This document shows positions 650 to 60,802 of a stretch of DNA of 64,000 nt, piece after piece (the stretch's first letter is position 1; each line of letters opens with the position of its first letter). The DNA is taken from the NCBI GenBank assembly GCA_964016885.1, contig OZ024741.1:46686001-46750000 (forward strand), given 5' to 3'. Below the pieces are notes generated by a model, which was not told the origin of the DNA, ran no database searches, and saw only the letters and a list, made by a program, of their open reading frames with translations. This DNA is from Eledone cirrhosa (taxonomy: Eukaryota). A program made the position numbers and the translations under genes.

Positions 650-792
650 CCCTCTTCCTGCTGTTTCAAGCGTTAACCTAATATATTCCTTCCATATACT
701 GTATCGATTGTGTTATTTCTGTTTACCTTTTACATACATAAATATATGTGTGTGTGGGGGGGGGGGTGCATTAACCTTAATTATTATTATTT

Positions 793-965
793 GGCAGTAT
801 CGGTAGAGCGTCAGACGCCATGTTTTGCAGCATAGAGTTATGACCCTTTACTTTCTAAGTTCAAATCCCGCCGAGGTTAACTTTGCCTTTCATCCTTACG
901 AGGTCTATAAAATAAAGCACCAGTTATGCACTGGAGTAATTACTGGCCTTGTGCCAAATAGTAGA

Positions 966-969
<4 letters not shown>
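793..969 (+). mobile_element. tRNA-derived SINE (main family)
   Basis: A-box-like GGCAGTATCGGTAGAGCG, B-box-like GTTCAAATCC, body GCCTTTCATCCTTACGAGGTC, tail GGCCTTGTGCC...AGAAAC. Preceded by (TTA)n; many copies in the window. Confidence 0.8.
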
Positions 970-3388: not shown

Positions 3389-3622
3389 TTTCTTTATTAG
3401 CCACAAGGGCGCAAAAAAAAAGGGGACAATACAAAGACATGCCGGGGATTTTACATACAGTCGTGTAAAAAATATAAAAACAAACAATTTCAACAATCGA
3501 AATCCCCAATAGGGGGGAGGCGTCACAAATGGGTTGTTTAATACCCCGTCGATAGAACAACCCTCAACTCCAGGAGCGTGTTGTGCAAGTGCTCCTTTCT
3601 TCCTTTTGCTCTCTTCCTCAAC

Positions 3623-22724: not shown

Positions 22725-22757
22725 TGCATATGTATATATATACATATATATATATTC

Positions 22758-22837
<80 letters not shown>

Positions 22838-22860
22838 ATATAGATGCATATATATATATT

Positions 22861-22927
<67 letters not shown>

Positions 22928-22933
<6 letters not shown>

Positions 22934-24320: not shown

Positions 24321-24363
24321 ATATATATGTAGATATATATATATAGATGCATATATATATATT

Positions 24364-24428
<65 letters not shown>

Positions 24429-24509
24429 GTACATATATATAAATACAAGTACACACATTTTTTCTCATTATTTCCATTATTTGATGTCTTTGCATTGTAC
24501 TTTACAAGT

Positions 24510-25795: not shown

Positions 25796-26671
25796 CAATC
25801 GTTGCTATTTCTTTTCGCCTGTTTTTCTTTTTTTGGGGGGGGGGGGGGGGTCCATCTGTGATGTTTTCCTTCGCCATTTTTTTTTGTCTCCTTTCTTAAC
25901 GATAAATCGTTTGGGATTTCTGTCTCTTTATTTATTCTCTATTTATTCACTCCTTCAAATTATTTATCAATAAGGAAGTTCTTTGATAGTCATAAAACTT
26001 ATTTAATGCGTACAATCTCTCAGGTGTCAACCACACACATTGCCATGATATCACCTACTGTGATACACAACAATTGCATACGTCACTTGCATATTTTCAG
26101 ACAAACACATTTCCTTACGTCCATGCACCTACCTACCTATAGATATAATTTGTCTGCACGCCTGGAAGCTGTTATTGTTATTATTGTTATTATCATTATT
26201 GTTGTTGTTGTTGCTATGCTTTGAAGCATACGAACATCTTTCAAGATAGTTCCGAGAAAATTGGATTATTACTAAGTTTTCAGGGGGAGGGGCATTTTTT
26301 CTTTCTTCTTTGTGTTTCTTTTTTTGTTTTTGTTTTTGTTTTTGTTTTTGTTTTGTTTGTTTTTTTGTTGTTTTTTTTGCAACAGCAGATTTCTGAAACG
26401 TATGGATGTTTATTTCAACATATATATTTGTGTTGACGTTCAATATGGCTTCTACTCTCATGTTTCCCCCCGAAGACAACCGACAGAAAAATCCAGGATT
26501 TATACCCTAATATCGGTGCAAGAGGGGAGTAAGCCCATTAGACTGGAGGTGCGATACAGAGAGCCCAGATGTACCTGTAATATTATGGGGCATTTGATGG
26601 ATTTCTGTTCAGAAGGTCTGATAATGCAAAAAATATATAAATAATAAAATGATAATAATAGCAATAATAAT

Positions 26672-27131
26672 GGGTTCTGATTTAGGTACAAGGCCAGCAA
26701 TTTTAGGGGACGGGTAGTGGATTAAATCGACCTCAGTGCATTACTGGTACCTTATTTTATCGACCCAACAAGGTTGAAAGGCAAAGGTAACCTCGGCGGG
26801 ATTTGAATTCAGAACGTAAAGGGACATAACTCTATGCCACGAAGCATGGTGTCCGACACTCTACCGATACAGCAAAATAATTATCTATAATATAATAAAG
26901 GGAGGAGTGCGGGACTGAGTCTGTTTTATAATTTTTTGTCCCGTTAACCTCGACGGGATTTGAACTCAGATCATAAAGGGCCGTAACTCTATGCTGCAAA
27001 GCATGGCGTCCGAACCAATACTGATACTGCCAATCCAATGCTCTTAATAATAATAATTGTTTCTACTTTTGGCACTAGGCCGGCAATTACTCAGTGCATT
27101 ACTGGTACTTTATTTTATCGACCCCGTAAGA
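26672..27131 (-). mobile_element. Cluster of three tandem SINE copies or fragments (main family)
   Basis: Reverse complements of the SINE at 793-969, at ~26672-26873, ~26940-27040 and ~27058-27131; two have (TAA)n at their 3' ends on the + strand. Confidence 0.8.
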
Positions 27132-30100
27132 ATGTAACAAAAAAATAATGAAAAATTCCCCAATACGGGGGAGACTTCCGAGGGACATTCGTGGAGAAAG
27201 CCCATTAAAAAGCCACAGTGACCCTGACCACCAGGGCAAGTACCCTCTCCCAGTTTTCCACCTTTAATTTACAGACACATACTCAGAGTAGGCCCATTCA
27301 CTCGAGCCATTCTTGCTTCTCTCACCCATCTTTCAACAAAATGCTGGGAAGAAAGCACTTCCCTCTCTACCCTGATTTTCCTTTTCAAATGAAATTTGAA
27401 AAAGTTAATCAGGGCATCACCGAAGAGGTAAGTGCTCGTCTTCAGCCCTTTCAAACGTGTCCACCATACTATCTCTTTCGCCATGGCCACCAGACAGATA
27501 AAAACTGCCTGCCCTTCCCGGCTAAAGGAAGAGGGCGGGGACAACCTCACGATGGACTCAGCTGATAGCTGGATCCGTCCTACACGCGACAGCAGGTATT
27601 CGACATAAACCCACAAGTCAGCAATGCTCGGACACTGGACGAGTGCGTGCAGGACGGTTTCGTCGCCCTGCGCGCATCTCGGACATGCCCGGCTGACGGC
27701 ACCTCCATGCCTGAAAAGTTTATCCCGAACTGGCAAAGCTCCTCGGTAGCACTGCCAGGTCAGGGATTTCTGGAAATTGTCCATAGTGCCCGGCCCAAAA
27801 GTTCTTCCGAAGAGATTGGCTAGTTCATTTTCGTCGACGCTGAGAGTCTTCCCAAGTACGTCGTCGCTCTTCCCCTCCACTAATCCGCTATAGAACGCCA
27901 AGGTAGAGTTTCCACCGATCACATTCACCGATTGGTCGAGGGCTGTGAGCGCCTGAAAACATTCCAGTCTCCAAGCGCTCACTCTCGGTCTTCGCTTGAC
28001 CCAGGACTGCAGCTCCGGCAAGAAACAAGCTGGGGAAAGACTTGTCTAGCAAACGGTGACCACACCTGATCACCGTCGAGGAAGAGGTGGAGATGTCGTA
28101 GCTGAGCGCGTGTCTGCGCATCATCAGCCACGGCATGCCCAGCCCTCCACGTTGCGCGTGTTGACAGCAGATGGACCGCCTGACCATCGGAGCGCGTCCC
28201 TTCCACAAAAAGCGAAAGAGCAAACGCTCCAGCGCAGTCAGGCGGGGCTTAGGACAAGGTACGACGGTCAGGCGGTAGTAGATGACGGACGCGATGTACG
28301 CGTTAGCCACCTCCGCTCGACCTTTCAGGGATAGCTTCTTCTATGCCCATTTCTGGGTGAGAGGAGTCACCCTGCTCCTTACCTCGTCCCAGTTTTTGTC
28401 CGTCGGGAGGTCCGGACCGAACCAGACCCCTAGCAATTTAACCGGTCCGTCCGTCCTGCGCCCGACGACGCTGTTGGACGGCATGGACCTGCCTCTCTAG
28501 GTGCCGAGCTGCAGGCCCACTGACTTTTCCTGGTTGATCATTGCTCCAGTCACCGCTTTGTATTCTCTTAATGTAGTGCCGATCGCCTCGATATGTTTGG
28601 CGTTCGACACCACTACGGTGACATCGTCCGCATATGCTGACACGGATCTTCCGCATCCAAATACGCGCGGGATCCCCCTCAACGTCTCTAGTTTGTGCAG
28701 TAATGGCTCGAGTGTCAATACGTACAAGAGGGACGAGAGGGGACATCCTTGGCGGACCGAGCGCATGATGTTGAACGGTTCCGAAAAGTGACCGTTCACT
28801 CTCACCACAGAGCAGATGTCGCTGTGCATGGCAGTGATCCAGCCTCTGAAGACAGGCTCAAAGCCAGCCGCCCTCAGGATTGCCGCTAGGTAACGATGGT
28901 CGACCCTATCGAAAGCTTTCGACTGATCTAAATTGATCAAGGACCCACCCGTGCCAGGTTCCCTAGCTACCCTCTCCACAATGTATCGCATGAGGTGGAG
29001 GTTGTCGTGGATAGATCTGTCGGGAATGTCGCATGTCTGCACCTCTCTCATCAGACCACCAACGAATATCGCTAACCTCTTTGTTAGTACTTTGGCCAAA
29101 ATCTTGAACTCTGTGTTTAGCAGAGTTATGGGCCTGAAATTATCTATGTTATCCCCCTTGTTCGGATCCTTCTCAGCAGCGCCACAGCTCCTCGGCTCAC
29201 AGAGCTGGGAATTCTCCCGTTCTGTTGCCAGTTGCAGTAGACGTCCGCCAAGAGGCCTCCGAACAAGTCTGGCATCTGTATGCAAAGTTCATAGGGCAGA
29301 CCATCCATACCAGGCGATTTACCTCCTGTGCAGCCAGTCATTGTCTCCCGTACTTCAGCGGCTGTTATCAGCTTTTCGCATCACTCCGCCTCAATGGCCG
29401 AGAACAGCGGCAGTCCGTCGAGGTAGACACTAAAGTCCATCCCTCGATCCGGCCCGCCGCTGCCACCCGTACAGCTGAGCGAAGTGCCACTGAAAAGCTT
29501 CACACATTTGCCCGGGATCGAGTAGCATGTGCCCGTCGTGGTCCACCAAAGACCGGATCGTGGCTTTGTTGCCACGATGCGCCTCCGCCACTCGGATCCA
29601 TTGAACGGCTTTCGTCCCCTCGTGTCTGAGAGCTCGCACCCTAGCTATGACAACGCAGCCTTCGTTCTTTGCATTGAAGAATTGGTGAAGGGCCAATTTC
29701 GCCGCAAGCACCTCGGTCGCGATGCCTTTGCTAAGCGCCTCGTCTAATTTTCTAACTAATTCTCCCTCTACTAAACCTAATGGACTCTATTCTAATCGCT
29801 CTTTTCAGAGCAAACCACCACTTGTTGTTGACGATGGCCTCCGTCAACGCCCGCTTAACTAGTTCGCTAATCCGGTCTCTGTAGGTCTTGCGCGCTGGTA
29901 AGGACGCGTTTAGCTTCCAGTAGCCGGGTCCTCGTCTATGAAGCCTATCTAAGTCAAGCACACTGATCGCGAATTTGTGGTCCGTGTAGCTGAATATCTT
30001 GAATTGTGGACAGCCTATGCTAGACCTATCTATTTCCCTACAAAATACTCTATCTAAATATGATCTGGATGACACTATGCGGTTTGTCCAAGTCCACATT

Positions 30101-32848: not shown

Positions 32849-32880
32849 GATTTCTTTATTGGCCACAAGGGCTGACATCA
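32849..32880 (-). mobile_element. ~30-nt Tx1 3' stub between (TAA)n tracts
   Basis: TTTCTTTATTGGCCACAAGGGCTGACATCA is identical to the 3' end of copy C (33194 onward). Confidence 0.8.
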
Positions 32881-33178: not shown

Positions 33179-33193
33179 AAATAATAATAATAA

Positions 33194-36100
33194 TTTCTTT
33201 ATTGGCCACAAGGGCTGACATCAAGAAAAACATTACAGACGGCACAGGACGGTACGATGTGGGTTTTGTGCGTGTAAAGATTTTTATTATTTATATGAAA
33301 AAAGAAAAAAAGACATAGAAACACATATATATATATATAAACAATAAAAATGAAAATTGAAACAATGAAAGATTCCCCAATAGAGGGGAAAACTCTGAGG
33401 GTTACTCGTGGAGAAAAGCGCACAAAAGACCATGGCCACACTGACCACCAGGGCAAGTGCCCTCTCTCAATTTTTCCATTTCTCAAACTACAGGCGTACA
33501 TTCAGAGCGGTCCCGTTCACTCGGACCATTCTCGCTACATTCACCAACCTTTCAACAAACTTGCTAGACGGCAGCACTTGCCTCTCCACCATGATTTTCC
33601 TCTTCAAGTGAAACTTGAAAAAGTTAATTAGGGATTCGCCGAAGAGGAAAGTATCTGTCTTTAACCCTTTCAACCTTGTCCACCACACAATCTCTTTCGC
33701 CATGGCCACCAGGCAGATGAAAACCGCCTGCCCTTCCTCCTCGAAGGAAGACGGCGAGACCATCTGCACAATGGACTCAGTCGATAACTGGATCAGTCCT
33801 ACACGCGACAGCAACTGTTCGACATAGCTCCACAAGTCAGCAATGCTCGGGCACTGAACGAGTGCGTGCACGACGGTTTCGTCATTCTGTGCGCATCTCG
33901 GACAGGCTCGGCTGACGGCACTTCCGTGCCTGTAGAGCTTATCTCGAACCGGCAACGCTCCCCAGTAACACTGTCAGGCCAGGGATTTTTGGAAGTTATC
34001 CATAGGCCCTGGGCTGAAAGTTCTCCGGAAGAGAGCAAACAGCTGATCTTCTTCGACGCCCAGGATCTCTCCGAGAACGTCGTCGCTCCTCCCCTCCACT
34101 AGTCCTCTATAGAACGCCGAGGTGGATGTTCCACCGATACTGGTGCCCAGCTGGCAGAGTGCAGTGAGCGCCTGGAGACATTCCAGTTTCCAAGCGCTAT
34201 CCCTCGGTCTTTTCCTGACCCAGGACTGCAGCTCCGTCAAGGAGATGAGCTGTGGGAAAACGTGCCTAGCGAACGGCGACCACACCTGTTCACCGTCAAG
34301 GAAGCACCAGAGATGTCGCAGCCTCAGTACATGTTTGCGCATCATCAGCCTTGGCATGCCCAGTCCTCCAGGCAACGGGTGTTGACAGCAGATGGATCGT
34401 CTGACCATGGGAGCGCGTCCCTTCCACAAAAAGCAGAAGAGGAGGCGCTCCATTTTGGCGAGAGTTGGGCCGGCGCAAGGGACAACGGTGAGGCGGTAGC
34501 AGATGACGGATGCGATGTACGCATTCGCCACCTCCGCCCGGTCTTTCAGGGACAGCTTCTTCTCGGCCTATTTCTAGGTGAGGGAGGCCACCTTGCTCGT
34601 CACCTCGTTCCAGTTTTTCTCCATCTGGAGGTCCGGTCCGAACCAGACCCCGAGCAATTTAACCGATCCGTTCGTCCAACGCCCCACGACGCTGTCGGCC
34701 GGCATGGGCTTGCCTCTCCAGGTGCCGAGCTGCAAGCCCACCGACTTTTCCTGGTTTATCTTTGCTCCTGTCACCGCTTCGTATTCCTTGAGAGCCATGC
34801 CGAGCATCTGGACGTGTCTGGTGCTCGACACCACTACGGTGACGTCGTCAGCGTAAGCCGACTCGGATTTCCCGCATCCTAGTTCCCGTGGGACGCCCCT
34901 CATCGCCCCCAGTTTGTGTAGTAACGGCTCGAGAGCCAATACGTACAAGAGGGACGAGAGGGGACAACCCTGGCGGACCGAGCGCATGATACTGAACGGC
35001 TGCGACAGGTGACCGTTCACTCTCACAACTGAGCAGATGTCGCTGTACATCGCAGCGATCCAACCCCTGAAAACGGGCCCGAAACCGGTTGCCTCGAGGA
35101 CCGCCGCCAGGTACCGATGGTCGACCCTGTCGAATGCTTTGGATTGATCCAAGTTGATCAGGGCCCTATCCGTGCCAGGTTCCTTAACCACCCTCTCTAT
35201 GATGTATCACATGAGGTGGAGGTTGTCGTGTATGGGTCTGTCCGGAATGGCGCATATCTGCGCCACTCCCACCAGACCCTTGACGACAAGCGCCAACCCC
35301 GTTGTTAACAGCTTGGCCAAAGTCTTGAACTCTGCGTTTAGCAGCCTTATGGGCCTGAAGTTATCGATAACATCCCCCTTGTTCGGGTCTTTTCTCAGCA
35401 GCGCCACCGCTCCCCGGCTCACAAAACTAGGAATGCTCCCGTTCTGCTGCCAGTTGCTGTAGACATCTGCCAAGAGGTCACCGAACAATTCTGGCATAAA
35501 TGCATAAAGCTTGTAGGGTAGACTATCCAAACCTGGCGATTTACCCCTCGTGCAGTTAGCCATCGCTTCCCGTATTTCACCGGCTGTTATTGGCTTTTCG
35601 CAACACTGTGCTGCGGTTGTCGAGAGCCGAGGCAGTCCATCATGGTATGCACTGAAATCCATACCCCGATCCGGCCCGCCGCTGCTCCCGAACAGTCCAG
35701 CAAAGTGCTGCTGAAAAGCTTCACACATCTTCTCGGGTTCAAGCAACACGCGCCCGTTTTGGTCAGACAAAGATCAAATTGTGGCTTTGTTGCCACGTCG
35801 CACCTCTGCCACCCGGGCTCATTGGACGGCTTTTGTCCCCTCGTGTTTCAGAGCACGCGCTCTAGCTCTGACAACGCAGTCTTCGTGTTTTGCGTTGAAG
35901 AACTGGTCAAGCACGTCGGTTGCGATGCCTGCCCTAAACGCCTCTTCTAGCTTTCTGAATAGCTCTCCCTCTACTCTATTTTCCTCTATCACTACTCCTT
36001 TGCTAAACCTAATCGACTCTACTTTAATTGCCCTTCTCAGGGCGAACCACCACCTGTTGTTGACGACCGCTCCCGTCAACGCCCGCTTAACTAATACGCT

Positions 36101-38574: not shown

Positions 38575-38605
<31 letters not shown>

Positions 38606-39168
38606 TATGCTGCTGCTGATGTTGTTGCGGCTGCTACTAGTATTTTCCTCGCCACTGTTGCTGCTGCTGCTGTTATTACGGCTGCTGCTGCTATTCTTCA
38701 TGACGTCAGACGAATGAAATGGCTTTCCGTATTTACCGCACACATCTTTCGTCGTTGTCGCAGTCGTGGAGAAATGTTCCACGGTACGCGTGTTCTCTTG
38801 ATGAAGAACGCTACGAGAAACTACATTTTTCTTTTTCTTTAATGGCGTCGCTTGTGAAAGAGGCGACAGAGGCGACACCACATTTAGAGAAGGGAGGGAT
38901 AGAGACAATCCTTTCTCTGACGTAACGACGATTGGGGAAGAAGAAGACGGAAGGAGTGGGAGTGACTTGTGAAAATTCTTTTTTGTAGCCATGTTTTTTT
39001 ACGGTTTAAAATGAATATTGGGCACAAAACGGACAGAAAGACCCCTCTCGCGAGGAGGAGGGTGTCTTTATCTACAATTTGGTTCAAGTTTTAAACAATT
39101 TACAATTGTTATAACGGTTAAAAATTACTATACCTTACAGAGCCGAGCCTCCGTCAACTATGGCATTC
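33194..39168 (-). mobile_element. Tx1-clade LINE, copy C (ORF1 38992-36926, ORF2 36893-33488; disrupted)
   Basis: ORF1 MATKKNFHKSL...CFRCGSKTHLRAFC; ORF2 MAVFRIGSVNVRGL with RT motifs QGCPLS and AYADDV; (TAA)n at both ends. Confidence 0.9.
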
Positions 39169-39207: not shown

Positions 39208-39209
<2 letters not shown>

Positions 39210-42200
39210 TTTCTTTATTAACCACAAGGGTTTACATAAAGTAGACATTAAGGACAGTGCAGGACAATACAGGACGGTACAAATGGGCATTTCTGCGTGT
39301 AAAAAACAAAAACAGAGGATGTAACAAAAAAATAACAATGAAAAATTCCCCAATAGAGGGGAGACTTCGGAGGGACATTTGTGGAAAAAGCCCAGTAAAA
39401 GGCCACAGTGACCCTGACCACCAAGGCAAGTGCCCTCTCCCAGTTTTCCACCTTTAATTTACATATACGTACTGAGAGTAGGCCCATTCACTCGGGCCAT
39501 TCTTGCTTCTCTCACCCATCTTTCAACAAAATGCTGGGAAGAGAGCACTTCCCTCTCTACTCTGATTTTCCTTTTCAAATGAAATTTGAAAAAGTCAATC
39601 AGGGCATCACGGAAGAGGTAAGTGCTCGTCTTCAGCCCTTTCAAACGTGTCCACCATACTATCCATTTCGCCATGGCCACCAGACAGATAAAAACTGCCT
39701 GCCCTTCCCGGCTAAAGGAAGAGGGCGGGGCAATCCTCACGATGGACTCAGATGATAGCCGGATCCGTCCTACACGCGACAGCAGGTGTTCGACATAAAC
39801 CCACAAGTCTGCAATTTTCGGACACTGGACGAGTACGTGCAGGAAGGTTTCGTCGCCCTGCGCCCATCTCGGACATTCCCGGCTGACGGCACCTCCATGC
39901 CTGTAGAGTTTATCCCGAACTGGCAAGGCTCCTCGGTAGCACTGCCAGGCCAGAGATTTCTGGAAGTTGTCCATAGGTCCCGGCCCGAAAGTTCTTCCGA
40001 AGAAATTGGCTAGTTGATTTTCGTCGACGCCTAGAGTTTCCCCAAGTACGTTGTCGCTCTTCCCCTCCACTGATCCTCTATAGAACGCCGAGGTGGAGTT
40101 TCCACCGATCACATTGCCCGATTGGTCGAGGGCTGTGAGCGCCTGAAGACATTCCAGTCTCCAAGCGCTCCCTCTCGGTCTTCGCTTGACCCAGGACTGC
40201 AGCTCCGTCAAGGAAACGAGCTGGGGAAATACATGTCTAGCAAACGGCGACCACACCTGATCACCGTCGAGGAAGAGGTGGAGATGTCGTAGCCTGAGCG
40301 CGTGTCTGCGCATCATCAGCCACGGCATTCCCATCCCTCCACGTAGCGGGTGTTGACAGATGGACCGCCTGACCATCGGAGCGCGTCCCTTCCACAAAAA
40401 GCGAAAGAGCAAACGCTCCAGCGCAATCAGGCGGGGCTTAGGACAAGGTACGACGGTCAGGCGGTAGCAGATGACAGACGCGATGTACGCGTTAGCCACC
40501 TCCGCTCGACCTTTCAGGGATAGCTTCTTCTCCGCCCATTTCTGGGTGAGAGAAGCCACCCTGTTCGTCACCTCGTCCCAGTTTTTGTCCGTCTGGAGGT
40601 CCGGACCGAACCAGACCCCTAGCAATTTAACCGGTCCGTCCGTCCAGCGTCCGACGACGCTGTTGGACGGCATGGACCTGCCTCTCCAGGTGCCAAGCTG
40701 CAGGCCCACTGACTTTTCCTGGTTGGTCATTGCTCCTGTCACCGCTTCGTATTCTCTTAGTGTAGTGCCGATCGCCTCGATGTGTTTGGCGTTCGACACC
40801 ACTACAGTGACATCGTCCGCATTTGCTAACACGGATTTTCCGCATGCTAGTTCGCGCGGGACCCCCCTCAACGTCTCCAGTTTGTGCACTAATGGCTCGA
40901 GAGTCAATACGTACAAGAGGGACGAGAGGGGACATCCTTGGCGGACCGAGCGCATGATGTTGAACGGTTCCGAAAGGTGACCGTTCACTCTCACCACAGA
41001 GCAGATGTCGCTGTGCATGGCAGCGATCCAGCCTCTGAAGACGGGCCCAAAGCCAGCCGCCCTCAGGACTGCCGCTAGGTAACGATGGTCGACCCTATCG
41101 AAAGCTTTCGACTGATCTAAATTGATCAAGGACCCACCCGTGCCAGGTTCCCTAGCTACCCTCTCTACGATGTATCGCATGAGGTGGAGGTTGTCGTGGA
41201 TGGATCTGTCGGAAATGGCGCATATCTGCGCCTCTCCCACCAGACCACCAACGACAAGCGCTAACCTCTTTGCTAGCACCTTGGCCAAAATCTTGAACTC
41301 TGTGTTTAGCAGAGTTATGGGCCTGAAATTATCTATGTTATCCCCCTTGTTCGGATCCTATCTCAGCAGTGCAACCGCTCCTCGGCTCACAGAGCTGGGA
41401 ATTCTCCCGTTCTGTTGCCAGTTGCAGTAGACGTCCGCCAAGAGGCCTCCGAACAAGTCTGGCATCTGTACGTAAAGTTCATAGGGCAGACCATCCAAAC
41501 CAGGCGATTTACCCCTTGTGCAGCCAGTCATTGCCTCCCGTACTTCAGCGGCTGTTATCGGCTAATGGATTCTATTCTAATCGCTCTTTTCAGAGCAAAC
41601 CACCACTTGTTGTTGACGATGGCCCCCGTCAACGCTCGCTTAACTAGTTCGCTAATCCGGTCTCTGTAGGCCTTGTGCGCTGGTAAGGACGCGTTTAGCT
41701 TCCAGTAGCCGGGTCCTCGTCTATGAACCCTATCTAAGTCAAGCACACAGATCACGAATTTGTGGTCTATGTAGCTGACTATCTTGAATTGTGAACAGCC
41801 TATGCTAGACCTATCTATTTCCCTACAAAATACTCTATCTAGATATGATCTGGATGACCCTATGCGATTTGTCCAAGTCCACATTGGCACATTCGGGAAA
41901 TCCAATCGGTACCTGTCAGACAGTTCAAAACGCCTGAGCAGGTTGGTGAGGCTCTTGCACCCTCCACCCCTATCCTATAATGTTACACAGTCCCAGCGTG
42001 CATCTAAGATCCCGTTCCAGTCGCCCACTAACACTAAAGAGCGGGACGTTCCAAGAAAGGTCTCCAGATGCCGGAAGAAATCAGACCGCCCTGCTATTGT
42101 CGGAGCATAGACGGCCACTAGGCCGTCTCCGCCGCTTACGTCCAGCACCGCCAACTTACACTCTGGGTCCAGGAAGATGGCCCGTATGGCGAGATCCAAA

Positions 42201-47700: not shown

Positions 47701-50568
47701 TCTAAGTCAAGCACACAGATCACGAATTTGTGGTCCGTGTAGCTGACTATATTGAATTGTGGACAGCCTATACTAGACCTATCTATTTCCCTACAAAATA
47801 CTCTATCTAGATATGATCTGGATGACCCTATGCGATTTGTCCAAGTTCACATTGGCACATTCGGGAAATCCAATCGATACCTGTCAGACAGTTCAAAACG
47901 CCTGAGCAGGTTGGTGAGACTCTTGCACCCTCCTCCCCTATCCGCTAATGTCACACAGTCCCAGCGTGCATCTAAGATCCCGTTCCAGTCGCCCACTAAC
48001 ACTAAAGAGCGGGACGTTCCAAGAAAGGTCTCCAGACGCCGGAAGAAATCAGGCCGCCCTGCTCCTGTCGGGGCATAGACGGCCACTAGCCTGAAAGCTT
48101 GCCTGTCCCCGCTGGTCACGTCCAGCACCACCAACTTACCTTCTGGGTCCAGGAAGATGGCCCGTATGGCGAGATCCAAACCTCTCCGAAAAAGCACAGC
48201 AACTCCTCCCCCCGATCCAGGACGGCTGGGAGATGCGTACACATCGTAGCCGCCGAAGAACGGTGCGAAGGCCCGTGCTTCGGAGATTCTGGTCTCGCTG
48301 ATGGCCACTACATCTATGTTTAGTGACCTGAGGTCGTTGAGCAGGTGGCTCTGCTTCCATGACCACCCCAAGCCACGCGCATTTATGCTGCCTATTCTGA
48401 GTGAGGTCATGTTGAAATGGACTGGAAAAGATGGGAAAGACCACCTACCTTACTTCTCATAGAGGAAGGACGGTTTCTCCATCCTTTTCACTGCTTGTGG
48501 CCTCCTCAGGAAGGATGTCCTTATAAATCCTCCTGGAGAGTGCTTGTCGGAAGTCTCCGATGTCTTTGGGGAATTTTTGTTTTAGTGTCATGTACGTTTT
48601 CGGTGTGATGCGAGTGATTTGTATGTGTGGAGGTGGTGTGAACTTTTGGGTTGTTGTGTAGTCTTTTTCTGTGATGCTGGTGTTGTGTTGGATCTAGTGT
48701 AATAATTGGTTGTTGTTCAAATTTAATGCTGTGTAGTGTGTATCGTTTTGGTTGTTTTGTTTTGTTTGTTGTGGGTTTGTTTCTGTTTCGCTTTTTGGTG
48801 ACTTTTGTGGTGTTGGTGATGGTGGTGTTGGGGTTAATGATGGTGATGGTGTTGGTGTTTGTGGTGATGGGGTTGGTGATGCTGGCATATCTGTCCTAAC
48901 TGTTTTGTCTGATAGTTTATTTGTTTTCCCCTGTATTTTGTTTTTGGAGGGGGAAGGAAGAGAATTTTTTTCTTTTTTGGTTTCATTTTTTTTTCTTTCC
49001 TGATACCGTTTCCCACTCCTCGTCGTCACAATCTGTCTCCAGTTGCGATAGGTCGGGTAGTGGAAAATCCTCCACAGGCGTTGGTTTTGGTTGTGGTGTG
49101 GTGGATGGTGTAGGCATTGGTGCTAGTTCTGGCGCGTTGGGTGGTGGTGGTGTTGGTTTTGCTACTGTTGCTGGGATTGTTGTTGTTACAGTTGCTTCTG
49201 TTGTTGCTGCCATTTCAGCTGCTGGTGGTGTTGATGGTTGAGTCGCTGGGGTGGGTAAGAGGTGGCCCCAACCTTTTAGCCTAAGGGCAGAAAGCCCTTA
49301 GGTGGGTTCCTTCACCACAAACGACACACCTAGGCCTTCTACCCTCGACGATTACGGCGAGGTGGCTGCGTCAGTGAGGTCTATTACCTCTGGGATCTCC
49401 TCAATGCTTTTTTGGTCCGCTTGGATCAGGAGCTCCATCCCAGATCCGTACCAGTTCTCCTGCTTTTCTTTCGCTATTTCGATTATCTTGGTGTTGGCCT
49501 CGATGCCGGCGAGGAGGGCAGCCATTAGCCAGGGAATTTCGATGGCCGGAGGAACGTGGGTCACCCTGATCTTCACGAGTCTCTGGCCACAATAGCTTGG
49601 GACGAGTGTGAAGTCGTCACTTCTTAATGGGGCCATGGTGTGTTCTCTAGCCTCCTGTGGTGTTTCAAAGAACACGTCTACGGTTCCATACTTCTGCCCA
49701 CGTCTGATGTGGGGTTTTTTTGCCCACACATGTCCCAAAGCTTTTTGGATTTGGGACTCGGATGCCCGTTCCACTCGGCGCGATTTTATATTAATTGTTC
49801 GATAAGACACGGTGCATAAGCGCCGATGCTCCATTTTATTAGGTGTGTGTGTGGGGGGGGGGGGGGGGGGGTCTGACCATGTACCCATCTTTCTTTACCA
49901 TTTTTGGGGCTTCTTCTAATTCCCCCTGAGTTACCTGGAATGCTTCGCACTGTTTTGCTACTCTGGCAAAACTCAGGGTGGTTTTCTTAATGTCATTGTT
50001 GGTGTTATCGTTATTTTTGTTATTAATTTTAGTTTCAGTTGTGGTAGTGGTGGTGTCAGTGGTGTTCGGTGTGGAAGAGTTCATTTTGGTTGAATTCATT
50101 TCGATATCACGAGTTAATTTATTTTTTTCTTTTGTTTCTGTTGTCGCGGTGGTGGTGGGGGTTGTCGCGGTGGTGGTGGCGGCTTTAACACCTGCAGTTA
50201 TTGGTAATGACGGGAAATGAATGTCTGCCTGAGACAAATTTAAAATATTGCTACTGCTTATATTTTTAGTGTTGGCAAACGTAGTAATATTTACAATGGT
50301 GGTGTCAGTGTGAGGTGTTAGTTTGTGAGAAAGGAGTGACTCTGAGTCAGCCATGATTTTTCAAAGAAAAATGTTTGTTTGATAATTATAAAAGTTTAAA
50401 TTTTGAGCTCAAGGCCCCAATCTTGTTGGGTGTCCTTTTCAGATAACAATGTATGTGCACTTATATACATTTAACAATAAAAATTTTCCATGAATGGCAA
50501 TTTTAAACAACTAAAAATAACAAACATTTGCGGAGCTCGCGATGATACGATTTACTACGTAGGTCGCC
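44784..50568 (-). mobile_element. Tx1-clade LINE, copy E (same family as B; ORF1 50354-~48445, ORF2 48410-45021; disrupted)
   Basis: Same 5' end GGCGACCTACGTAG as B, MTSLRIGSINARGL, RT motifs; (TAA)n at both ends. Confidence 0.9.
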
Positions 50569-50617
50569 AATAATAATAATAATAATAATAATAATAAGAA
50601 GAAGAAGAAGAAGAAGA

Positions 50618-53600
50618 AACATCCCGAAAACAGAGGCTATATTGACAGTAACAAACTAGCCAATATACGAAGAAATATTGTAAGAAAAAAGTTACTAACT
50701 GATATAGAAATTGATCAGATCAAGCTAGTAGCACAAAGTCAGCGAAGGGAAAATGAAACATGTGTCAGTGAAAACGAGGTAAACTGTAACACTTCGAATC
50801 CCAGGGTTGGGGCGGAATCACTGGCAACAGAACAAATTAAAGAAAGGATCGAAAAAGTGGAGGGAGTGCATGCTCAGGATGAAACTTCAAATGAAAATAA
50901 TGAGATCGTAAATGATAAAGAAATGAATGAGAATGAACTTGCCAACTTGAAGGATGAAATTATGATCGAATGGATGAAAATGAAAGAATCTGACATGGGG
51001 CAACGAGACACCCTCCCTAAGATCCAGAACTCCAAACAGAACCAAAAGATAATACACAAGACTAACATAATTCTCAAAAACATTATCATCACAAACAAAC
51101 TAAACATTACTGATTTAAATCATCTCTATTATGCATCGGCTAAAGTCACCACTCACTTATGTGGAGTGAAGATGAAAAAACAAAGGAATTCCCACAAGAA
51201 ATCTACTTGGCAAGAGAACATCAATCGCCAAATAAACCTTCTCCGATCTGACATAGAAATTTTAACAAACTATAAAGTAGGTGAACATGTTAAACAAACT
51301 AAACTTAGAAAATTGAAAAAAAAGTACAGTATAAAATCAACATGTGACATAGACATGCTGATAGAAATAATCAAGCAAAAAGTGTCGGCCAAAGCTGCTC
51401 GTATAAGGCGCTTTGAAAAACGATCTAGATTCTATAAGGACAATAATATGTTCAAAAACAACCAAAGAAACTTCTACAGAAAAATTGGTAAGTCAACAAT
51501 AACTGCTAAATCAATACCACCCAAGGAGGAAGTGCAAGAATTCTGGGAAAAGATCTGGGCCGAAGAAAAAGTTCATAACATACATGCCCCATAGATAGAC
51601 AGACAAATGAAAGATACAGCTCACCTTGAGGAACAGATATGGGAAAATATAACAGTTGAACAGTTGCGCTTGGCTCTAAGAAAAACCAGCAAATGGAAAT
51701 CCCCAGGAAAAGACAAAATACAAAACTTTTGGATAAATGCCTTCACAGAGTCTCATGAGCTGTTAGCCCAACTTTACAATGAAATAGTTAAGGAGCCAGA
51801 AAAGATACCATCATGGCTAGTTAACGGCATTACATTCCTGCTTCCGAAGAATGATGAGACAAACAATCCCAAAAATTACAGACCGATAACTTGCTTGACC
51901 ACAATGTATAAAATTTTAACATCAGTCCTAACTGAATACACATATGACCACCTGATAACAAATGACCTATTTCACATTGAGCAGAAAGGGTGTAAACGAG
52001 GCTCATATGGCTGTAAGGATCAGCTTCTGGTTAACAAAATGATACTGGAAGATTGTCATAATAGACACAAAAATCTATCGATTGCTTGGATAGATTATAA
52101 AAAAGCATTCGATAGTTTGCCACACAGTTGGATTGAAAAATGTTTAGAGATTTTCAAAATATCCCCCGTTGTCAGGAGGTTTTTGTCATTCAGTATGAAG
52201 ACATGGAAAACGGCACTCCTTTTGAATAGTGAAACAAAATCACTGGAAGCTGGAGAAGTTAATATTAATTGTGGAATTTTTCAAGTTGACTCTTTATCAC
52301 CGCTTTTATTCTGCATCGCACTTATACCATTAAGTAAAATGCTCAATGAAACAAAACATGGATATAGAGTCTATGACAAAACCATTACTCACCTGTTCTA
52401 CATGGATGACCTGAAACTATTTGCAAAAAATGATGAACAATTGCAAGGGCTATTATCCACCGTGGAGCAGTTCAGTGATGACATTAAAATGGAGTTTGGA
52501 CTAGATAAATGCGCCAAAGCAACGTTCACCAGAGGAAAGCTGCTGAAGAGTTCAGACATTAATCTTGATCGGGGGAACGTGATAAGAGGACTTGATCAAG
52601 AAAAAACTTACAAACATCTAGGTGTTTGTGAAGGAGACGGAATCAAGCACTCGACAATGAGGGAAAGGATAAGGAAGGAATGTTACCGCAGAGTAAGAGC
52701 AATCTTAAGAACGGAATTGAATGCAAGGAATAGGACCGATGCCATAAACACGCTTGCCATACCAGTAGTAACCTACAGTTACAATGTCATCAACTGGTCA
52801 AGCACAGAGATCCGTAGGCTCGATACAAAAATTCGAAAATTCTTAACCATGCACCGAATGAATCACCCTAAGGCAGATATAGATAGAATATATCTCCCTA
52901 GGAAAGAAGGAGGACGTGGGTTAATCCAGTTAGACATTGCGTTGAAAACTGCAACAATTGGATTATCTACATATCTAAGAGAATCACATGATTGGATGAT
53001 CAAACTCGTTTTGAAACACGAAAGCATCAAAAGATCATATTCCATTACAAAAGATGCACAAAGATACAGTAATGGACTACAAATTTCAGAAGTCCCATTT
53101 ACTGCTGAAATGGAAAACACAGAAAAAGCAAAGCAGGTAAAAGTAACTGCAAAGAAAGAACTGCTACAGAAACTGGCTAAGAAATGGCAAGAAAAGCCTC
53201 TGTATGGAAAATACCCAGAGCGAGCTAACAATCCTGATGTTGACAAAACTTTAACCCATCAGTGGTTGGCATCCTCTGGACTGAAATCGGAGACTGAAGG
53301 ACTGATTATATCAGCACAAGATCAGTGTCTGCCAACAAAAAATTACCAAGCCAACATAATAAAAAATGGGTGCAGCCCATTATGCCGTGTATGCAAAAAA
53401 CAACCAGAGACCATTGACCATATAATTTCAATGTGCAGTCCTATAGCTCCAACCGAATACCTAAACAGGCATGACAGAGCTGCACAATACATACATTGGA
53501 TAATGTGTAAGCATTTTGACCTGCCCCATCAAAAGAATTGGTGGGAGCATCAACCACCTCCCATACTTGAAAAAGATCACATCTCAATCTTGTGGAACTT

Positions 53601-54093
53601 TAGCATCCAAACAGACCGAAAAATAGATGCAAATAGACCTGATATAATATTGAAGGACTTTCAAAAGAGGGTATGCCTGCTAATTGATATGTCTGTTCCA
53701 ATAGACAAGAATGTATCTATAAAAACATTTGAAAAATTGAGCAAGTATAAGGACCTGGAGATAGAAATTGGAAAAATGTGGAAATTGAGAACTAAAACAA
53801 TACCAGTGGTTGTAGGCGCTCTGGGAATGATACCTAAGGGGTCTAATGATTACATATCGCAGATCCCAGGAAACCCGCGTATAGGAGAAATACAAAAGAT
53901 AGTACTAATGGGAACTGCCCATATACTAAGGAAGATTCTGTCAATATAAGTACATCGGAAGTCTAAACACTAAAGATGCATGTGTGAATATGTATGTTCT
54001 TTCTTGAACATGGCGGACCTTGTTGTCTCTTGAGGTCACTGGTTGTGACTTGGTGATAACTCGTATGAACATAAAGCAAGATAAATGCAACTA
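50618..54093 (+). mobile_element. R4/Dong-like RLE LINE, 5'-truncated, ending in (TAA)n
   Basis: Single long ORF with RT, CCHC and RLE domains; the 3' UTR ends GATAAATGCAACT followed by (AAT)n. Dong elements are known to target (TAA)n. Confidence 0.9.
50620..53949 (+). pseudogene. R4/Dong-type polyprotein (RT + CCHC + restriction-like endonuclease) with one in-frame stop
   Basis: The frame is open from 50620, with TAG at 51592-51594. Motifs: KWKSPGKD, NYRPITCL, WIDYKKAFDS, GIFQVDSLSP, FYMDDLKL, GGRGL, CRVC..ETIDHIISMC, RHD, RPDI, IDMSVP, EKLSKYKDL. Confidence 0.9.
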
Positions 54094-54109
54094 TAATAAT
54101 AATAATAAT

Positions 54110-56282
54110 AATGAGACAAACAATCCCCAAAATTACAGACTAATAACATTCTTGGCCACAATGTATGAAATGTTAACATCAGTCCTAACTGAATATACAT
54201 ATGATCACCTGATAACAAATGATCTATTTCCCAATGAGCAGAAAGGGTGTAAACGAGGCTCATAAGGATGTAAGGATCAGCTTTTGGTTAACAAAATGAT
54301 ACTGGAAGATAGTCATAATAGACGCAAAAATCTATCATTGCTTGGATAGATTACAAAAAAAAGCATTCGATAGTTGGCCACACAGTTGGATTGAAAAGTG
54401 CTTAGAGATTTTCAAAATATCTCCTGTTGTCAGGAGGTTCTTGTCATTCAGTATGAAGACATGGAAAACGACACTCCTTTTGAATAGTGAAAAAAAATCA
54501 CTGGAAGCTGGAGAAGTTAATATTAATTGTGGAATTTTTCAGGGTCACTCTTTATCACTGCTTTTATTCTACATCGCACTTATACCATTAAGTAAAAGGT
54601 GGATATAGAGTCTATGACAAAACCATTAATCACTTGTTCTACATGGATGACCTGAAACTATTTGCAAAAAAATGATGAGCAATTGCAAGGGCTATTATCC
54701 ACTGTGACGCAGTTCAGTGATGATATTAAAATGGAGTTTGGACTAGACAAATGCGCCAAAGCCACGTTCACCAGAGGAAAGCTGCTGAGAAGTTCAGACA
54801 TTAATCTTGATCGGGGGAATGTGATAAGAGAACTTAACCAAGAGGAAACTTACAAATATCTAGGTGTTTGTGAAGGAGACGGAATCAAGCACTCGCCAAT
54901 GAGGGAAGGATAAGGAAGGAATGTTACCGCAGAGTAAGAGCAATCTTAAGAACGGAATTGAATGCAAGGAATATGATCGATGCCATAAACACGCTTGCCA
55001 TACCAGTAGTAACCTACAGTTTCAATGTTATCAACTGGTCAAGCACAGAGATCCGTAGGCTCGATACAAAAATTAGAAAATTATTAACCATGCACAGAAT
55101 GCATCACCCTAAGGCAGATACAGATAGAATATATCTCCCTAGGAAAGGAGGATGTGGATTAATCCAATTGAATTATCTACATATCTAAGGGAATCACATG
55201 ATTGGATGATCAAACTCGTTTTGAAACATGAAAGCATCAAAAGATCATACTTCATTGCAAAAGATGCACAAAGATACAGTAATAAACTACAAATTTCAGA
55301 AGTTCCATTTACTGCTGAAATGAAAAACACTGAAAAAGCAAAGCAGGTAAAAGTAACTGCAAAGAAAGAACTGCTACAGAAACTGGCTAAGAAATGGCAA
55401 GAAAAGCATCTGTATGGAAAATACCCAGAAAGAGCTAACAATCCTGATGTTGACAAAACTTTAACCAAACAGTGGTTGGCATCCTCTGGACTGAAATCGG
55501 AGAATGAAGGACTGATTATATCAGCACAAGATCAGTGTCTGCCAACAAAAAATGATCAAGCCAAACATAATAAAAAATGGATGCAACCCATTATGCCGTG
55601 TATGTAAAAAACAACCAGATACCAGTGATCATATAATTTCAATGTGCAGTCCTATAGCTCCAACCGAATACCTAAGCAGGCATGACAGAGCTGCACAATA
55701 CATACATTGGATATTGTGTAAGCATTTTGACCTGCCCCATCAAAAGAATTGGTGGGAGCATCAACCACCTTCCGTACTTGAAAAAGATCCCATCTCAATC
55801 TTGTGGAACTATAGCATCCAAACAGACCGAAAAATAGATGTAAATAGACCTGATATAATATTGAAGGACTTTAAAAAGAGGATATGCCTGCTAATTGATA
55901 TATCCCTTCCAATAGACAAGAATGTATCTATAAAAACATTTGAAAAATTGAGCAAGTATAAGTACCTGGAAATAGAAATTGGAAAAATGTACCAGTGGTT
56001 GTAGGCGCTCTGGGAATGATACCTAAGGGGTCTAATGATTACTTATCGCAAATCCCAGGAAACCTGCGTATAGGAGAAATACAAAAGATATTACTAATGG
56101 GAACTGCCCATATACTAAGGAAGATTCTGTCAATATAAGTACATCACAAGTCTAAACACTAAAGATGCATGTGTGTGTATGTATGTTCTTTCTTGAACAT
56201 GGCGGACCTTGTTGTCTCTTGAGGTCACTGGTTGTAACTTGGTGATAACTCGTATGAACATAAAGCAAGATAAATGCAACTG
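54110..56282 (+). mobile_element. Second, more truncated and frameshifted copy of the same Dong-like LINE
   Basis: Homologous to ~51852-54093; begins inside the first copy's (AAT)n tail and ends in (TAA)n. Confidence 0.9.
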
Positions 56283-56306
56283 TAATAATAATAATAATAA
56301 TAATAA

Positions 56307-57748
56307 TTTCCCTTATTATTGGCCACAAGGGCCGAACATAGAGGACAATACAAAGACAGAGGGGGGGGGGGGGGGGGTTACATAAATTCCTGTAAAAACA
56401 ATGCAACAAAAAACAATTAACAATACAATAAAAACAACAGAATTCCCCAATAGGGGGGATATCACCCAGGGATGACCTTAGGCACGCCACAAATCCTAAC
56501 CCACCTTCATCTCCAAGAGCACCCTAGGAAGGTTCCCCTTTTCCTTTAATCCCTCCAGCCTACAGGCACTTGGTCAGAGTAGGCCCACTCACACGAGCCA
56601 TCATCACCACATTCCCCCACCTTTTAACAAATGTACCCTCACATTCTTTTCCAAGTGGAACTTGGAAAAGTTGATAGGGGATTGGCCGAAGATAAAAGTC
56701 TGTTTTCAGACCTTTCAGACGCGTCCATCACACCTCTTTCGCTACAGCTATAAGAGAGAGTAAAATTGCCTGACCTTCCCGGTCAAAAGAAGGCGGCGAG
56801 ACGGTCTTCACTGTGGATTCGGTCGACAGCCGGACGCGATAACAACTGTTCGACAACAAAGACATCAAGTCAGTAATGCACGAACACTGGACGAGTGCGT
56901 GCAGAGCGGTTTCATCGCTCTGTGCGTATCTCAGTCAGGTCTGCCTGACAGCACTTCTGTGCCTATAGAGTATATCTCGAACCGGCAGTGCCGCCAAGCG
57001 AGAGACTTCTGGAAATTATCCATAGTCCCTGGCTTGAAGGTCCTCCAGAACAAACTGGTCAGTTCGACTTCGATGACGCCCAGAGTCTCTCCGAGTCTGT
57101 TGTGCACTTGCCTGCCTGGTAGAGGGCAGAGAGCATCTGGCAACATTCCAGATGCCTGGCACCCAGTCTCGGTCTCTTCTTGATCCAGGACTGCAGCTCA
57201 GTCAAAGAGACGAGCTACAAAAAGGCCTGTCTCACAAACGGCGACCACGCCTGATCACCTTTTAAGCAGAATATCTGGAGACGCCGCAACCTGAGCGCAT
57301 GTTTGCGGATTATTAGCCACGGCAAGCCCAGCCCTCCAGGTAGAGGGTGCTGGCAGCAGATAGATCACCTCACCAACGGAACTTGTCACCTCCAAAAGAA
57401 GTTGAAGAGGACCCGTTCCAATTTGGCGAGGCACGACGGTCAGGTGACGGACGCAATGCACGCGTTTGCCACCTCCGTCCGACCATTCAGAGATAGCTCT
57501 TGGCCCATTTCTGGGTGAGAGTGGCTACCCTGTTCGAAACCTCGTCCCAATTCTTATCCATCTGGTCTGGTTCGAACCAGAACCCGAGCAACTTTACCAG
57601 TCCATCCAGCGCCGACGAAGTTGTTGAACGGCATGAGCTGGCCCCTCAAGGTGCCAAGCTGCAAGCCCACCGACTTTTCCGAGTTTAGTTTTTCTCTCGT
57701 CAACTTTTCATATTTCCCCAAGAAGGTGCCGACCACCTCGATTTCCGA
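56307..57748 (-). mobile_element. Older, 5'-truncated Tx1 fragment (divergent family)
   Basis: EKSVGLQLGT and MDNFQKSLAW; 3' end GCCCTTGTGGCCAATAATAAGGGAAA followed by (TTA)n. Confidence 0.8.
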
Positions 57749-58585
57749 GGCAGTATCGGTAGAGCATCAGACACCATGCTTTGCACCATAAAATACAGCC
57801 CTTTACGCTCTGAGTTCAAATCCCACTGAGGTTAGCTTTGCCTTTCATCCTTATGGTGTTCGATAAAATAAAGTACCAGTCACGCATTGGGGTCGATTAA
57901 ATCGACTTTTCTCTCACCTAAAATTGTTGGCCTTGTGCTTATATCAGAATCTGAGTTCAAATCTGCCGAGGTTAACTTTGCCTTTCATCCTTACGGGGTC
58001 GATAAAATAGAGTACCAGTAATGCACTGAGATAATTGCTGGCCTTGTGCCAAAAGTAGAAACAATTGTTATATAGGGCGGTAAATTGGAAGTATCAGTAG
58101 AAAGTCGGAGGATATGCTTTGAGTTCTCTTTACGCTCTGAGTTCAAAAACCACCGAGGTTAGCTTTGCCTTTCATCCTTTCGGGATCGATAAAATAAAGT
58201 ATTAGTAACAAACTTGTGGAGGCGCGTGGCCTAGTGGTAAGGGTGTTTGACTTACGATCATAGTGCCGTTGGTTCGATTCCTTGGCTGGATTGCGTGTTG
58301 TGTTCTTGAGCAAAACACTTCATTTCACGTTGTTCCAGTATACTCAGCTGAAAATGGGTACCAGCAATAGCTGGCGATTTTACCCTGCGATGAACCGGCG
58401 TCTTGTCCATCGGGGTTAGGAGTCTTTTACTCTCAGTCGCTTCACGCCACGAAACCGGGATAAGCATCAGCCAGGCCTAACGAGCCTTCTGGCTTAAGAC
58501 AGACTTTAGCCTGGGTTTGATTCAATTGAGTTTCCCTTCCCCGAAAATTGTTGGCCTCGTACCTAAATCAGAAACAATTATTATT
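57749..58585 (+). mobile_element. Tandem SINE cluster (main family; ~57749-57950, ~57950-58068, ~58075-58205 with its tail at ~58510-58585)
   Basis: Repeated GAGTTCAAA, GCCTTTCATCCTT and GGCCTTGTG...AGAAAC motifs. Confidence 0.8.
58216..58508 (+). mobile_element. Second tRNA-derived SINE family, nested in a main-family SINE
   Basis: A box TGGCCTAGTGG, B box GGTTCGATTCC, body GTGTTCTTGAGCAAAACACTT. A related head occurs at ~61558-61650. Confidence 0.7.
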
Positions 58586-59269: not shown

Positions 59270-59660
59270 GCTGGCCACTCCTGTCTTGATGGTAATTCCT
59301 AGCTTCTCATGCAATACATACAACCTTTTTCTTACTGCTCCCAGTGCTTCAACCACAATCGGTACCACTTCTCTATAGTTTCTTGATTTCTCTCTTCAGC
59401 TCCTGGTTTTTCTCAACTTTCTCACTTTTCTTCTCATTCACCCTGTGGCCCCACAGCGAAGCAATATCCACAATACATGCCTTGTTATTCTTCTTTTCTA
59501 CGATAAAATGGTCGCACTGGATGGTCATCTCCCACAAGATCTTATACTGTTCATTTTCAGCAACCGTTTCCGGTTGGTGTTCATACCATTTCTTACATCT
59601 GCTCAGGTCATACTTATGACAGATCTTCCAATGAACCAATCTGGCAATGTTGTCGTGTCG
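59270..59660 (-). pseudogene. Degenerate R4-like RLE LINE C-terminal fragment
   Basis: HRHDNIARLVHWKIC...WYEHQPETVAEN...ILW...IVDIA...EKVEKNQELKREI; cut off at a SINE at 59661. Confidence 0.75.
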
Positions 59661-60095
59661 GTGGATTGGCAGTATCGGTAGAGCGTTGGACACCATGCTT
59701 TGTGACATAAAGTTACGACGCTTTACGTTCTGAATTCAATTTCCGCCAAGGTTAGCTTTGCCTTTCATCCTTACGGAGTCGATAAAATAAAGCACCAGTT
59801 ATGCACTGGGGGATTTAATCGATTTTCCCCTCCCACCAAATTGCTGGCCTTGTGCCTATATAAGAAACCATTATTATTATTGGGGGATTGGCAGTATCAG
59901 TAGAGCGTCGGACAACATGCTTTGCGGTATATAGTTACAGTTCTTTACGTTCTGAGTTCAAATACCGCCGAGGTTAGCTACTTTTCATCCTTATGAGATA
60001 AAATAAAGCACCAGTAATGCAATGGGGTCGATTTGATCGACTTTCCCCTCCCAAAAAACTATTGGCCTTGGGCCTAAATCAGAAACCATTATTAT
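59661..60095 (+). mobile_element. Two head-to-tail full-length SINEs (main family) joined by (TTA)n
   Basis: ~59661-59880 and ~59882-60095, each ending AGAAACCATTATTAT. Confidence 0.85.
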
Positions 60096-60802
60096 CATTG
60101 TTATTGTGGCTACTGCTGCTATAAAAGTAACTATAATCTTGTCTCTCTTCTTTTCAATAAGGTTATTGTTTATTTTGTGTAATGATGCAGTAGTTGTTTG
60201 GGAAAGACGATGTCTGTCTCATATGATAGAATATACGTTTTAAAAGAAACGGAAACGAAAGGAGCATTAAGTACAGTGTGATGGGAGATACGTCTTAAAA
60301 ACAGTTGTCAGAATCAATCTAGAGAAAAACTTGACAAGAGATAAAAATATGGGAACATTTTTCAAGATACAATTAACTTTTTCATTTCTCGAAGAAAAGT
60401 TAATCTAGCATAAATAATAGAGAACAAGTTTTCCTATCTTGGCTTTTGTGTATTGAAAGACAAAACATAAGAAAAACAAATGATAAATGAGACAATCTAA
60501 TAAATCTTTTGAGAACACTTCTTGTTTCTAGCGAAGTTTAGCTGTATTGTTTTTCCGTGAAACGAAAGATATGGAGCCACGCTAAAAAAACAACAAACAA
60601 ATAAATGCAAAAAGTGGGCATAAAAAAAGGAACAACAGCAAAGGCTACAAAATAGATGCATGTAAAAAAAATACCATTCCGTCCATTCATGTGAAGTCGA
60701 CAATGCCTTTAGATATGAAACTATTCTGCAATTAATCTTGTTACATAATTACTCATAGGCAAACATTTATGTATCATTGCAAGTATTTGTCGGGTCTAGT
60801 CT

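Follow-up and report, generated by a model that had tools for sequence, protein, structure and literature searches.

A short 3' signal in common between an abundant SINE and Tx1-clade LINEs of Eledone cirrhosa suggests mobilisation of the SINE by Tx1

An abundant SINE in the genome of Eledone cirrhosa is likely mobilised by LINEs of the Tx1 clade. This relationship had been proposed in an earlier note on the window, as we call the whole stretch of 64,000 nucleotides analysed here (contig OZ024741.1, 46,686,001-46,750,000), and it is supported by a match between the 3' ends of the two elements, by a predicted hairpin with compensatory pairs within that match, by the footprint of their target duplications and by overlapping activity. 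The Tx1 ORF2 enzyme probably copies the SINE, and, judged from the sequences, the predicted recognition signal is a small hairpin with a CUUGU loop.

The SINE and the Tx1 LINEs

The genome (3.0 Gb) was sampled as 60 evenly spaced 10-kb stretches, together with loci fetched around chosen motifs. The SINE, with 206,845 exact tails genome-wide, behaves as a SINE in the respects tested: it is short and high-copy, it is flanked by target duplications, and one empty site was found. It exists in two forms, with consensus lengths of 181 nt (short) and 212 nt (long). The long copy at 59660..59869 consists, in this order, of a head with A-box-like and B-box-like motifs, a central domain, a palindrome of the type GTCGAT-TTA-ATCGAC with a C tract, and the 3' signal. 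The two motifs of the head lie ~52 nt apart and resemble the box consensus; ARAGORN detected 0 tRNA genes in the SINE, and Rfam returned no tRNA match. A second long-form copy is inserted in the tail of this one (Table 1), and the right copy of its 13-bp duplication is present at 60088-60100 with one mismatch.

The short form is the younger one. Relative to the long form, ~31 nt are absent from it, the perfect palindrome and the C tract among them, and it outnumbers the long form among full-length copies (46/67); in the window, the difference can be seen between 57950-58063 (short) and 59660-59869 (long). The plus strand at 58217-58520 carries a SINE-like element of another kind; its head is tRNA-like, its tail differs, and its Rfam tRNA match (E 0.025) is below the cut-off. 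The label MetaSINE, which denotes elements with a 66-bp Meta-domain behind the head, was considered for the SINE and dropped, as the central-domain motif TTTCATCC is missing from the accessible part of the supplement of PMC4824008; the bivalve Meta alignments available from that source, which comprise bivalve members only, look unrelated by eye to the SINE central domain. Further searches on the central domain yielded no assignment.

The Tx1 LINEs have 11,775 exact tails genome-wide. Their ORF2 contains an APE endonuclease domain (PF03372), a reverse transcriptase domain (PF00078) and a zf-RVT domain (PF13966), and its nearest solved structure is L1 ORF2p (E 2e-26), with R2 behind (E 4e-13). 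The homologues include a protein annotated as “Transposon TX1 uncharacterized 149 kDa protein” (P0100, E 6.6e-50). The ORF1 motif CX2CX4HX4C is present in the open reading frames at 37598-38998 and 42500-44224, and a CCHC zinc knuckle in ORF1 is a feature of the Tx1 clade. As judged from its domains, ORF1 motif and target preference, the LINE partner is probably a member of this clade. An open frame of 1152 aa was found in 2/19 Tx1 copies.

Other repeats in the window include near-identical inverted duplications (93-100%) at 18898-20290 and 21556-24445, which are anchored at (TA)n runs. Long minisatellite arrays rich in (ACC), their units measuring 11 nt and 21 nt, occupy 16408-18546 and 24511-25771.

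Table 1. Positions of SINE and LINE features in the window.
Feature	Position	Strand	Remark
Short-form SINE	791..969	+	followed by (AT)n
3' signal of a sister Tx1 family	3389..3411	-	ends in (ATCT)n
SINE cluster	26663..27137	-	long form 26663-26876, head 26945-27037
Truncated short-form SINE of this cluster	27058-27137	-	abuts Tx1 3' UTR
Tx1 3' signal, repeated end	32849..32873	-	same family as 33192..33216
Tx1 3' signal GCC[CTTGT]GGC-CAATAAAGAAA	33192..33216	-	
Tx1 3' signal AACC[CTTGT]GGTT-AATAAAGAAA-TC	39208..39233	-	then 13 ATT units
Tx1 ORF2 fragment, RT + zf-RVT	39459..41357	-	nearest solved relative L1 ORF2p
Two Dong/R4-type LINE copies, (TAA)n tails	50563..56307	+	landing pad, not partner
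Tx1 3' end in the (TAA)n tail of a Dong/R4-type LINE	56308..56334	-	tail-to-tail
Stack of three SINE pieces	57749..58214	+	
Piece 1, long-form SINE	57749-57949	+	
Piece 2, truncated short-form SINE	57950-58063	+	3' signal 58040-58063
Piece 3, SINE head and body	58074-58214	+	
Long-form SINE, ~210 nt	59660..59869	+	first of two stacked copies
Its terminal hairpin GGC[CTTGT]GCC (predicted)	59846..59856	+	3 pairs
Its AGAAA + 2 nt, element end	59863..59869	+	ATT from 59870
Its ATT tail	59870..59882	+	doubles as left copy of the second SINE's 13-bp duplication
Second long-form SINE, in the tail of the first	59883..60087	+	3' signal 60064-60087
CCTTGKG-N8-AGAAA, Tx1 ends	3389-3408, 32851-32870, 33194-33213, 39210-39229	-	
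CCTTGKG-N8-AGAAA, SINE ends	58042-58061, 59848-59867, 60066-60085	+	

The common 3' signal and its predicted hairpin

The sequences that the earlier note quoted for the 3' ends of the SINE and Tx1 proved correct on re-reading, and so did the motif that it saw in both. CCTTGKG-N8-AGAAA occurs 7 times in the 64-kb window (shuffled mean 0.02), a number attained by none of 100 shuffles of the window, although these matches are copies of two repeat families and hence not 7 independent events. An ungapped alignment of the seven ends has in common CC TTG.G, one A and AGAAA, and ATT starts two bases later. The common stretch is only ~22 nt long and is made up of a predicted 3-pair hairpin with a CTTGT loop, AGAAA and 2 nt, followed by ATT; both elements terminate 2 nt past AGAAA, at equal distance from the loop, and no alignable sequence was found upstream of the hairpin. 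The two elements had also been credited with the same (TTA)n tail, but the Tx1 copy at 3389 has (ATCT)n. As a sign of pairing, an (ATT)n/(TAA)n tail is not diagnostic, because a CR1 family and Dong/R4 families also have one.

The stem that both ends can form around CUUGU has 3 pairs, GGC/GCC in the SINE and GCC/GGC or ACC/GGU in the Tx1 families, with C-G/G-C swaps between Tx1 and the SINE and G-C/A-U swaps between Tx1 families. The three inner positions are paired in 21/21 cells, and two of the pairs are changed on both sides. The covariation score of 0.452, which represents two events among related sequences, was equalled by 3/500 shuffles, and slid controls scored lower. A common 3' hairpin is predicted on these grounds. 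It is present in the minimum-energy fold of 5/8 ends, with no z-score below -1.5, and the fold of the SINE copy with the signal at 59846..59856 differs from it. Among SINE subfamilies the 6-nt spacer varies, and the hairpin and AGAAA are kept at 90-100% per column in 150 copies (150/168 in-register tails, selected with the hairpin unconstrained). The CTTGT loop is found in nearly all ends of the ATT families, and variant loops occur mainly in (ATCT)n families. The sister Tx1 families targeting (ATCT)n (3389-3411; L021, L022, L063, L096, L206) keep the GCC/GGC stem and have the loops CCTGT, CTAGT and CTGGT, hinting that loop and target of Tx1 families vary together.

Tx1 could also move the SINE loosely, via AUU pairing and proximity, in which case the hairpin would be a relic of common ancestry or have another role such as 3' processing. 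The hairpin folds no better than shuffles, the sister families alter its loop, and mammalian L1s are described as relaxed (PMC3472496). We nevertheless consider loose mobilisation unlikely, as the stem stays paired where both of its sides have changed and the loop hardly varies in the ATT families; a role in polyadenylation is opposed by the SINE keeping hairpin and spacing without AATAAA. In our reading, the hairpin would be the signal by which Tx1 recognises the SINE.

The earlier note had suggested comparing the SINE tail with other LINE ends and with shuffled sequences. We compared 14 LINE ends, five of Tx1 and 9 of CR1, RTE and Dong, with three SINE copies; the clade names CR1, RTE and Dong/R4 are presumed from protein motifs. 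Tx1 came out closest, with 13-16/22 identities to the SINE over the last 22 nt for the five Tx1 ends versus 6-12/22 for the 9 others. Against 2000 shuffles, the two main ATT Tx1 families (15-16/22) gave p<=0.001 in this anchored comparison, the window of which was picked after the match had been seen. The shuffle comparison was weak when unanchored: for local scores over 60 nt, p was 0.003-0.52 with the Tx1 ends, and a value of p=0.006 was obtained for one RTE end against one SINE copy. The ends of two further RTE families are unlike that of the SINE by eye.

A generic form of the motif excluding the SINE's own stem has 12,969 matches genome-wide. Among the 100 matches listed, ~9/10 are Tx1-type by eye, and the remainder resemble mutated SINE or Tx1 ends. 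The SINE tail is preceded by a non-SINE 5-mer at only 66 places in the genome. We fetched 30 of these and found a SINE body upstream in 25/30, and an adjoining RT end at none of the 30. A pattern scan of metagenomes for the tail gave 2 matches, neither with LINE or SINE context by eye, and the viral contigs searched contained no relative. A DNA search with the Tx1 3' end yielded no candidates, which says little either way.

The panel covered these 14 ends and two RTE families. It is conceivable that an unsampled LINE with a similar ATTAT nick (Hero, L2, R2, Penelope or another RTE or CR1 family) moves the SINE and that its likeness to Tx1 is convergence on the target. The SINE and Tx1 differ strongly in array preference (see below), and many recently active LINE families are described in O. 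vulgaris (PMC13282606). The genome-wide matches listed include no third abundant carrier of the motif, however, and a crude and noisy scan of 80 loci for inserts bounded by duplications, in which 358/367 matches were unassigned noise, gave no other recurring family starting at ATT. We regard an unsampled mover as quite improbable.

Insertion footprint, target arrays and activity

Duplications were scored by one rule for all families. Loci L001, L101-L130, L241-L242 and L257-L262 were dropped, as were copies without both junctions (SINE 3/144, Tx1 16/75, CR1 16/55) and those with simple-repeat 3' flanks (SINE 9, Tx1 22, CR1 16); the comparison covers SINE, Tx1 and CR1, and in Dong and RTE, where simple-repeat flanks would mask them, duplications were not seen. 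Duplications of >=10 bp were found in 61/132 SINE copies, versus 61/937 (6.5%) in the cross-paired control, and in 15/37 Tx1 copies, versus 45/632 (7.1%), the Tx1 set being enriched for short-tail copies by a pattern that forces ATTATT and leaves motif positions 1-6 not independent. When junctions were compared, as had been suggested earlier, the duplications of both elements were found to be 10-26 bp long and to start at Y|ATTAT. They begin at the first ATT (offset 0) in 43/51 SINE and 14/16 Tx1 cases, and a pyrimidine precedes them in 47/51 and 13/16, respectively; row L236 of these data is doubtful, and some 5' junctions are blurred by nested insertions. At locus L108, exactly 39 nt are absent from one contig of organism B. 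This corresponds to one copy of the 15-bp duplication together with the 24 nt of the SINE end, which shows that the L108 duplication is real; the insertion added no extra ATT units.

A CR1-type family (L031-L060, L181-L210) with a single 945-aa frame ends in (ATT)n. At least 9,065 exact copies of its tail were counted, and its 3' UTR contains SINE insertions at L054 and L188. With so many tails, many intact frames, and the tail polarity and age of the SINE, this family might be its driver. However, 0/23 ATT-tailed CR1 copies have duplications of >=10 bp (cross-paired control 16/594, 2.7%), the end identity is 8-10/22, and the hairpin-like end of CR1 is its own and different in sequence. The missing duplications largely refute this possibility, which we judge very unlikely. 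Chance resemblance between two AT-rich ends, to which the short match and the weak unanchored score would be open, has hardly any probability in view of the exact register to the duplication start, the paired swaps and the matching insertion footprint.

At least 4 ATT units follow the tail in 2/54 SINE copies of the random sample, versus 284/1950 background YATTAT sites (14.6%), and in 5/6 Tx1 copies of the random sample and 23/30 at the first places listed. In Tx1, ATT runs of >=7 units are also present 5.3-6.1 kb upstream of 9/19 ends. The SINE has the short nick motif of Tx1 in common, without its array preference, and these counts contradict the earlier claim that the SINE inherits the microsatellite specificity of Tx1. 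Of the apparently short Tx1 copies, 6/8 end in arrays too by eye, so that selective loss of long insertions probably does not account for all of the difference. The array split is compatible with an effect in cis, for instance if the Tx1 transcript carries an extended AUU run, and equally with a different enzyme.

The activity periods, which had also been singled out for comparison, overlap. SINE divergence from the consensus starts at 1.2%, with medians of 5.7% for the short form and 11.4% for the long form, and nearest-neighbour divergence in Tx1 is 0.5-11.6% and 3.5-22%. SINE and Tx1 have also inserted into each other's junctions (L137/L205 versus L211, L223). As CR1 and Dong are equally young, timing permits Tx1 but does not select it.

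Two loci considered as SINE-Tx1 hybrids (L231, L211) were rejected, both being stacked insertions. Genome-wide, 2 SINE-body/Tx1-end and 3 Tx1-body/SINE-like-end sequences (L293, L294, L296-L298) cross over inside CCTTGTG; a third SINE-body/Tx1-end match is not a hybrid but a SINE variant. Because the flanks of the hybrids are ATT-rich, template switching is indistinguishable from deletion between neighbours, and they were not counted as support.

Other repeats serve as neighbours and landing sites. In the (TAA)n tails of Dong copies (56283-56334 in the window; L096, L134-L158), Tx1 and SINE 3' ends lie tail-to-tail; 28 Dong ends carried 13 Tx1 and 3 SINE ends, all antisense, in a sample biased to Tx1 loci. 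A very young RTE family (L273-L290, e.g., G000:C1:62510900-62517300), with open frames of ~1200-1250 aa in many copies, has long (ATT)n and (TG)n tracts in its 3' UTR, and a Dong copy lies inside the tract in L282. In L173 and L180, Tx1 and SINE insertions have flanks similar to this tract, and the family seems to spread landing pads for other elements.

A proposed mechanism and its known relatives

Our model of binding, nicking and tail length draws on target-primed reverse transcription and on work with L2 elements (PMC4176376). Tx1 ORF2p would bind the hairpin, and its endonuclease would nick the strand opposite ATTAT. The freed end would then pair with the initial AUU repeats in the transcript, the spacing from hairpin to AUU would set the start of copying, and a second nick ~11-22 nt away would yield the duplication. 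A Tx1 transcript that reads into the donor's own array could pair over many units, which would favour long (ATT)n, and a putative short Pol III transcript of the SINE, with one or two units, could land at any ATTAT. We offer only tentatively the full proposal that the 3-pair hairpin picks the RNA for the Tx1 enzyme and sets a priming ruler, with two target spectra arising from one enzyme.

Several known systems resemble parts of this pair. Crocodilian SINEU elements are inferred to be moved by the Tx1-clade LINE Tx1-Mar, on the grounds of a common target and concurrent age (Kojima 2015, PMC4494074), and have in common with the Eledone pair a Tx1-clade LINE as the probable mover. SINEU elements have U1/U2 snRNA heads and a Mariner target, and their link consists of the target and the 5' head; we found no description of a common 3' tail in the part of that paper at hand. 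The Eledone SINE, in contrast, has a putatively tRNA-like head and is linked to Tx1 by a predicted 3' hairpin signal and a duplication footprint. The same source describes Kibi, Koshi and crocodilian Tx1 elements in the microsatellites (TC)n, (TTC)n, (TTCC)n and (TTTC)n, and in the pages available we found no partner SINE named for these elements. Eledone Tx1 also sits in microsatellites, but in (ATT)n and (ATCT)n.

Stringent pairs of the L1 clade are maize ZmSINE2/3 with LINE1-1_ZM and Chlamydomonas SINEX-3_CR with L1-1_CR (PMC3472496, PMC3747384). SINEs with L1-group tails are counted as rare, with three cases, all plant or algal (PMC3472496). In these pairs a LINE of the L1 group has a 3' hairpin with a compensatory stem, a conserved loop and a conserved 3' flank that are also present in the SINE, as is predicted for ours. 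They have ~45-100 nt in common, whereas the Eledone pair has ~22 nt, is animal and Tx1-type, and has 3 pairs and an ATT target. For ZfL2-1 and ZfL2-2, ORF2 binding of the 3' stem-loop has been proposed, general for the stem and specific for the loop (PMC4176376); that system is of the L2 clade and experimentally shown, whereas the Eledone pair is of Tx1 type and inferred. In RTE-related SINEs, the duplication start correlates with the 3' microsatellite, and the RNA repeat has been proposed to set the priming site (PMC6007223, consulted in part). That system belongs to the RTE clade, and the four RTE ends in our data terminate in (GAT)n or (ATGT)n/(AT)n, unlike the SINE.

The mix of SINE, Tx1-type, Dong/R4-type, CR1 and RTE elements in this genome resembles reports on octopus, as far as these were accessible (PMC13282606, PMC8967140). 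No publication on the Tx1-SINE pair turned up in our literature searches. The SINE as such has quite possibly been recorded before, in Repbase, Dfam or SINEBase or in a 1994 paper on an octopus SINE.

The animal Tx1-SINE precedent that we found rests on common targets, and the Eledone pair has a 22-nt signal in common, in which few point mutants would suffice to test whether recognition in the L1/Tx1 group is stringent or relaxed. The array split between SINE and LINE is a natural experiment on whether target specificity is a property of the endonuclease or of the RNA tail. If the proposed mechanism is true, the Tx1 enzyme would insert its own RNA into long ATT arrays and that of the SINE at any ATTAT, and the length of RNA-target pairing, rather than the endonuclease, would give microsatellite specificity. 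The SINE-Tx1 pair would then be the engine of a major SINE expansion in the genome, and the pairing would name the driver of one of its most abundant repeats.
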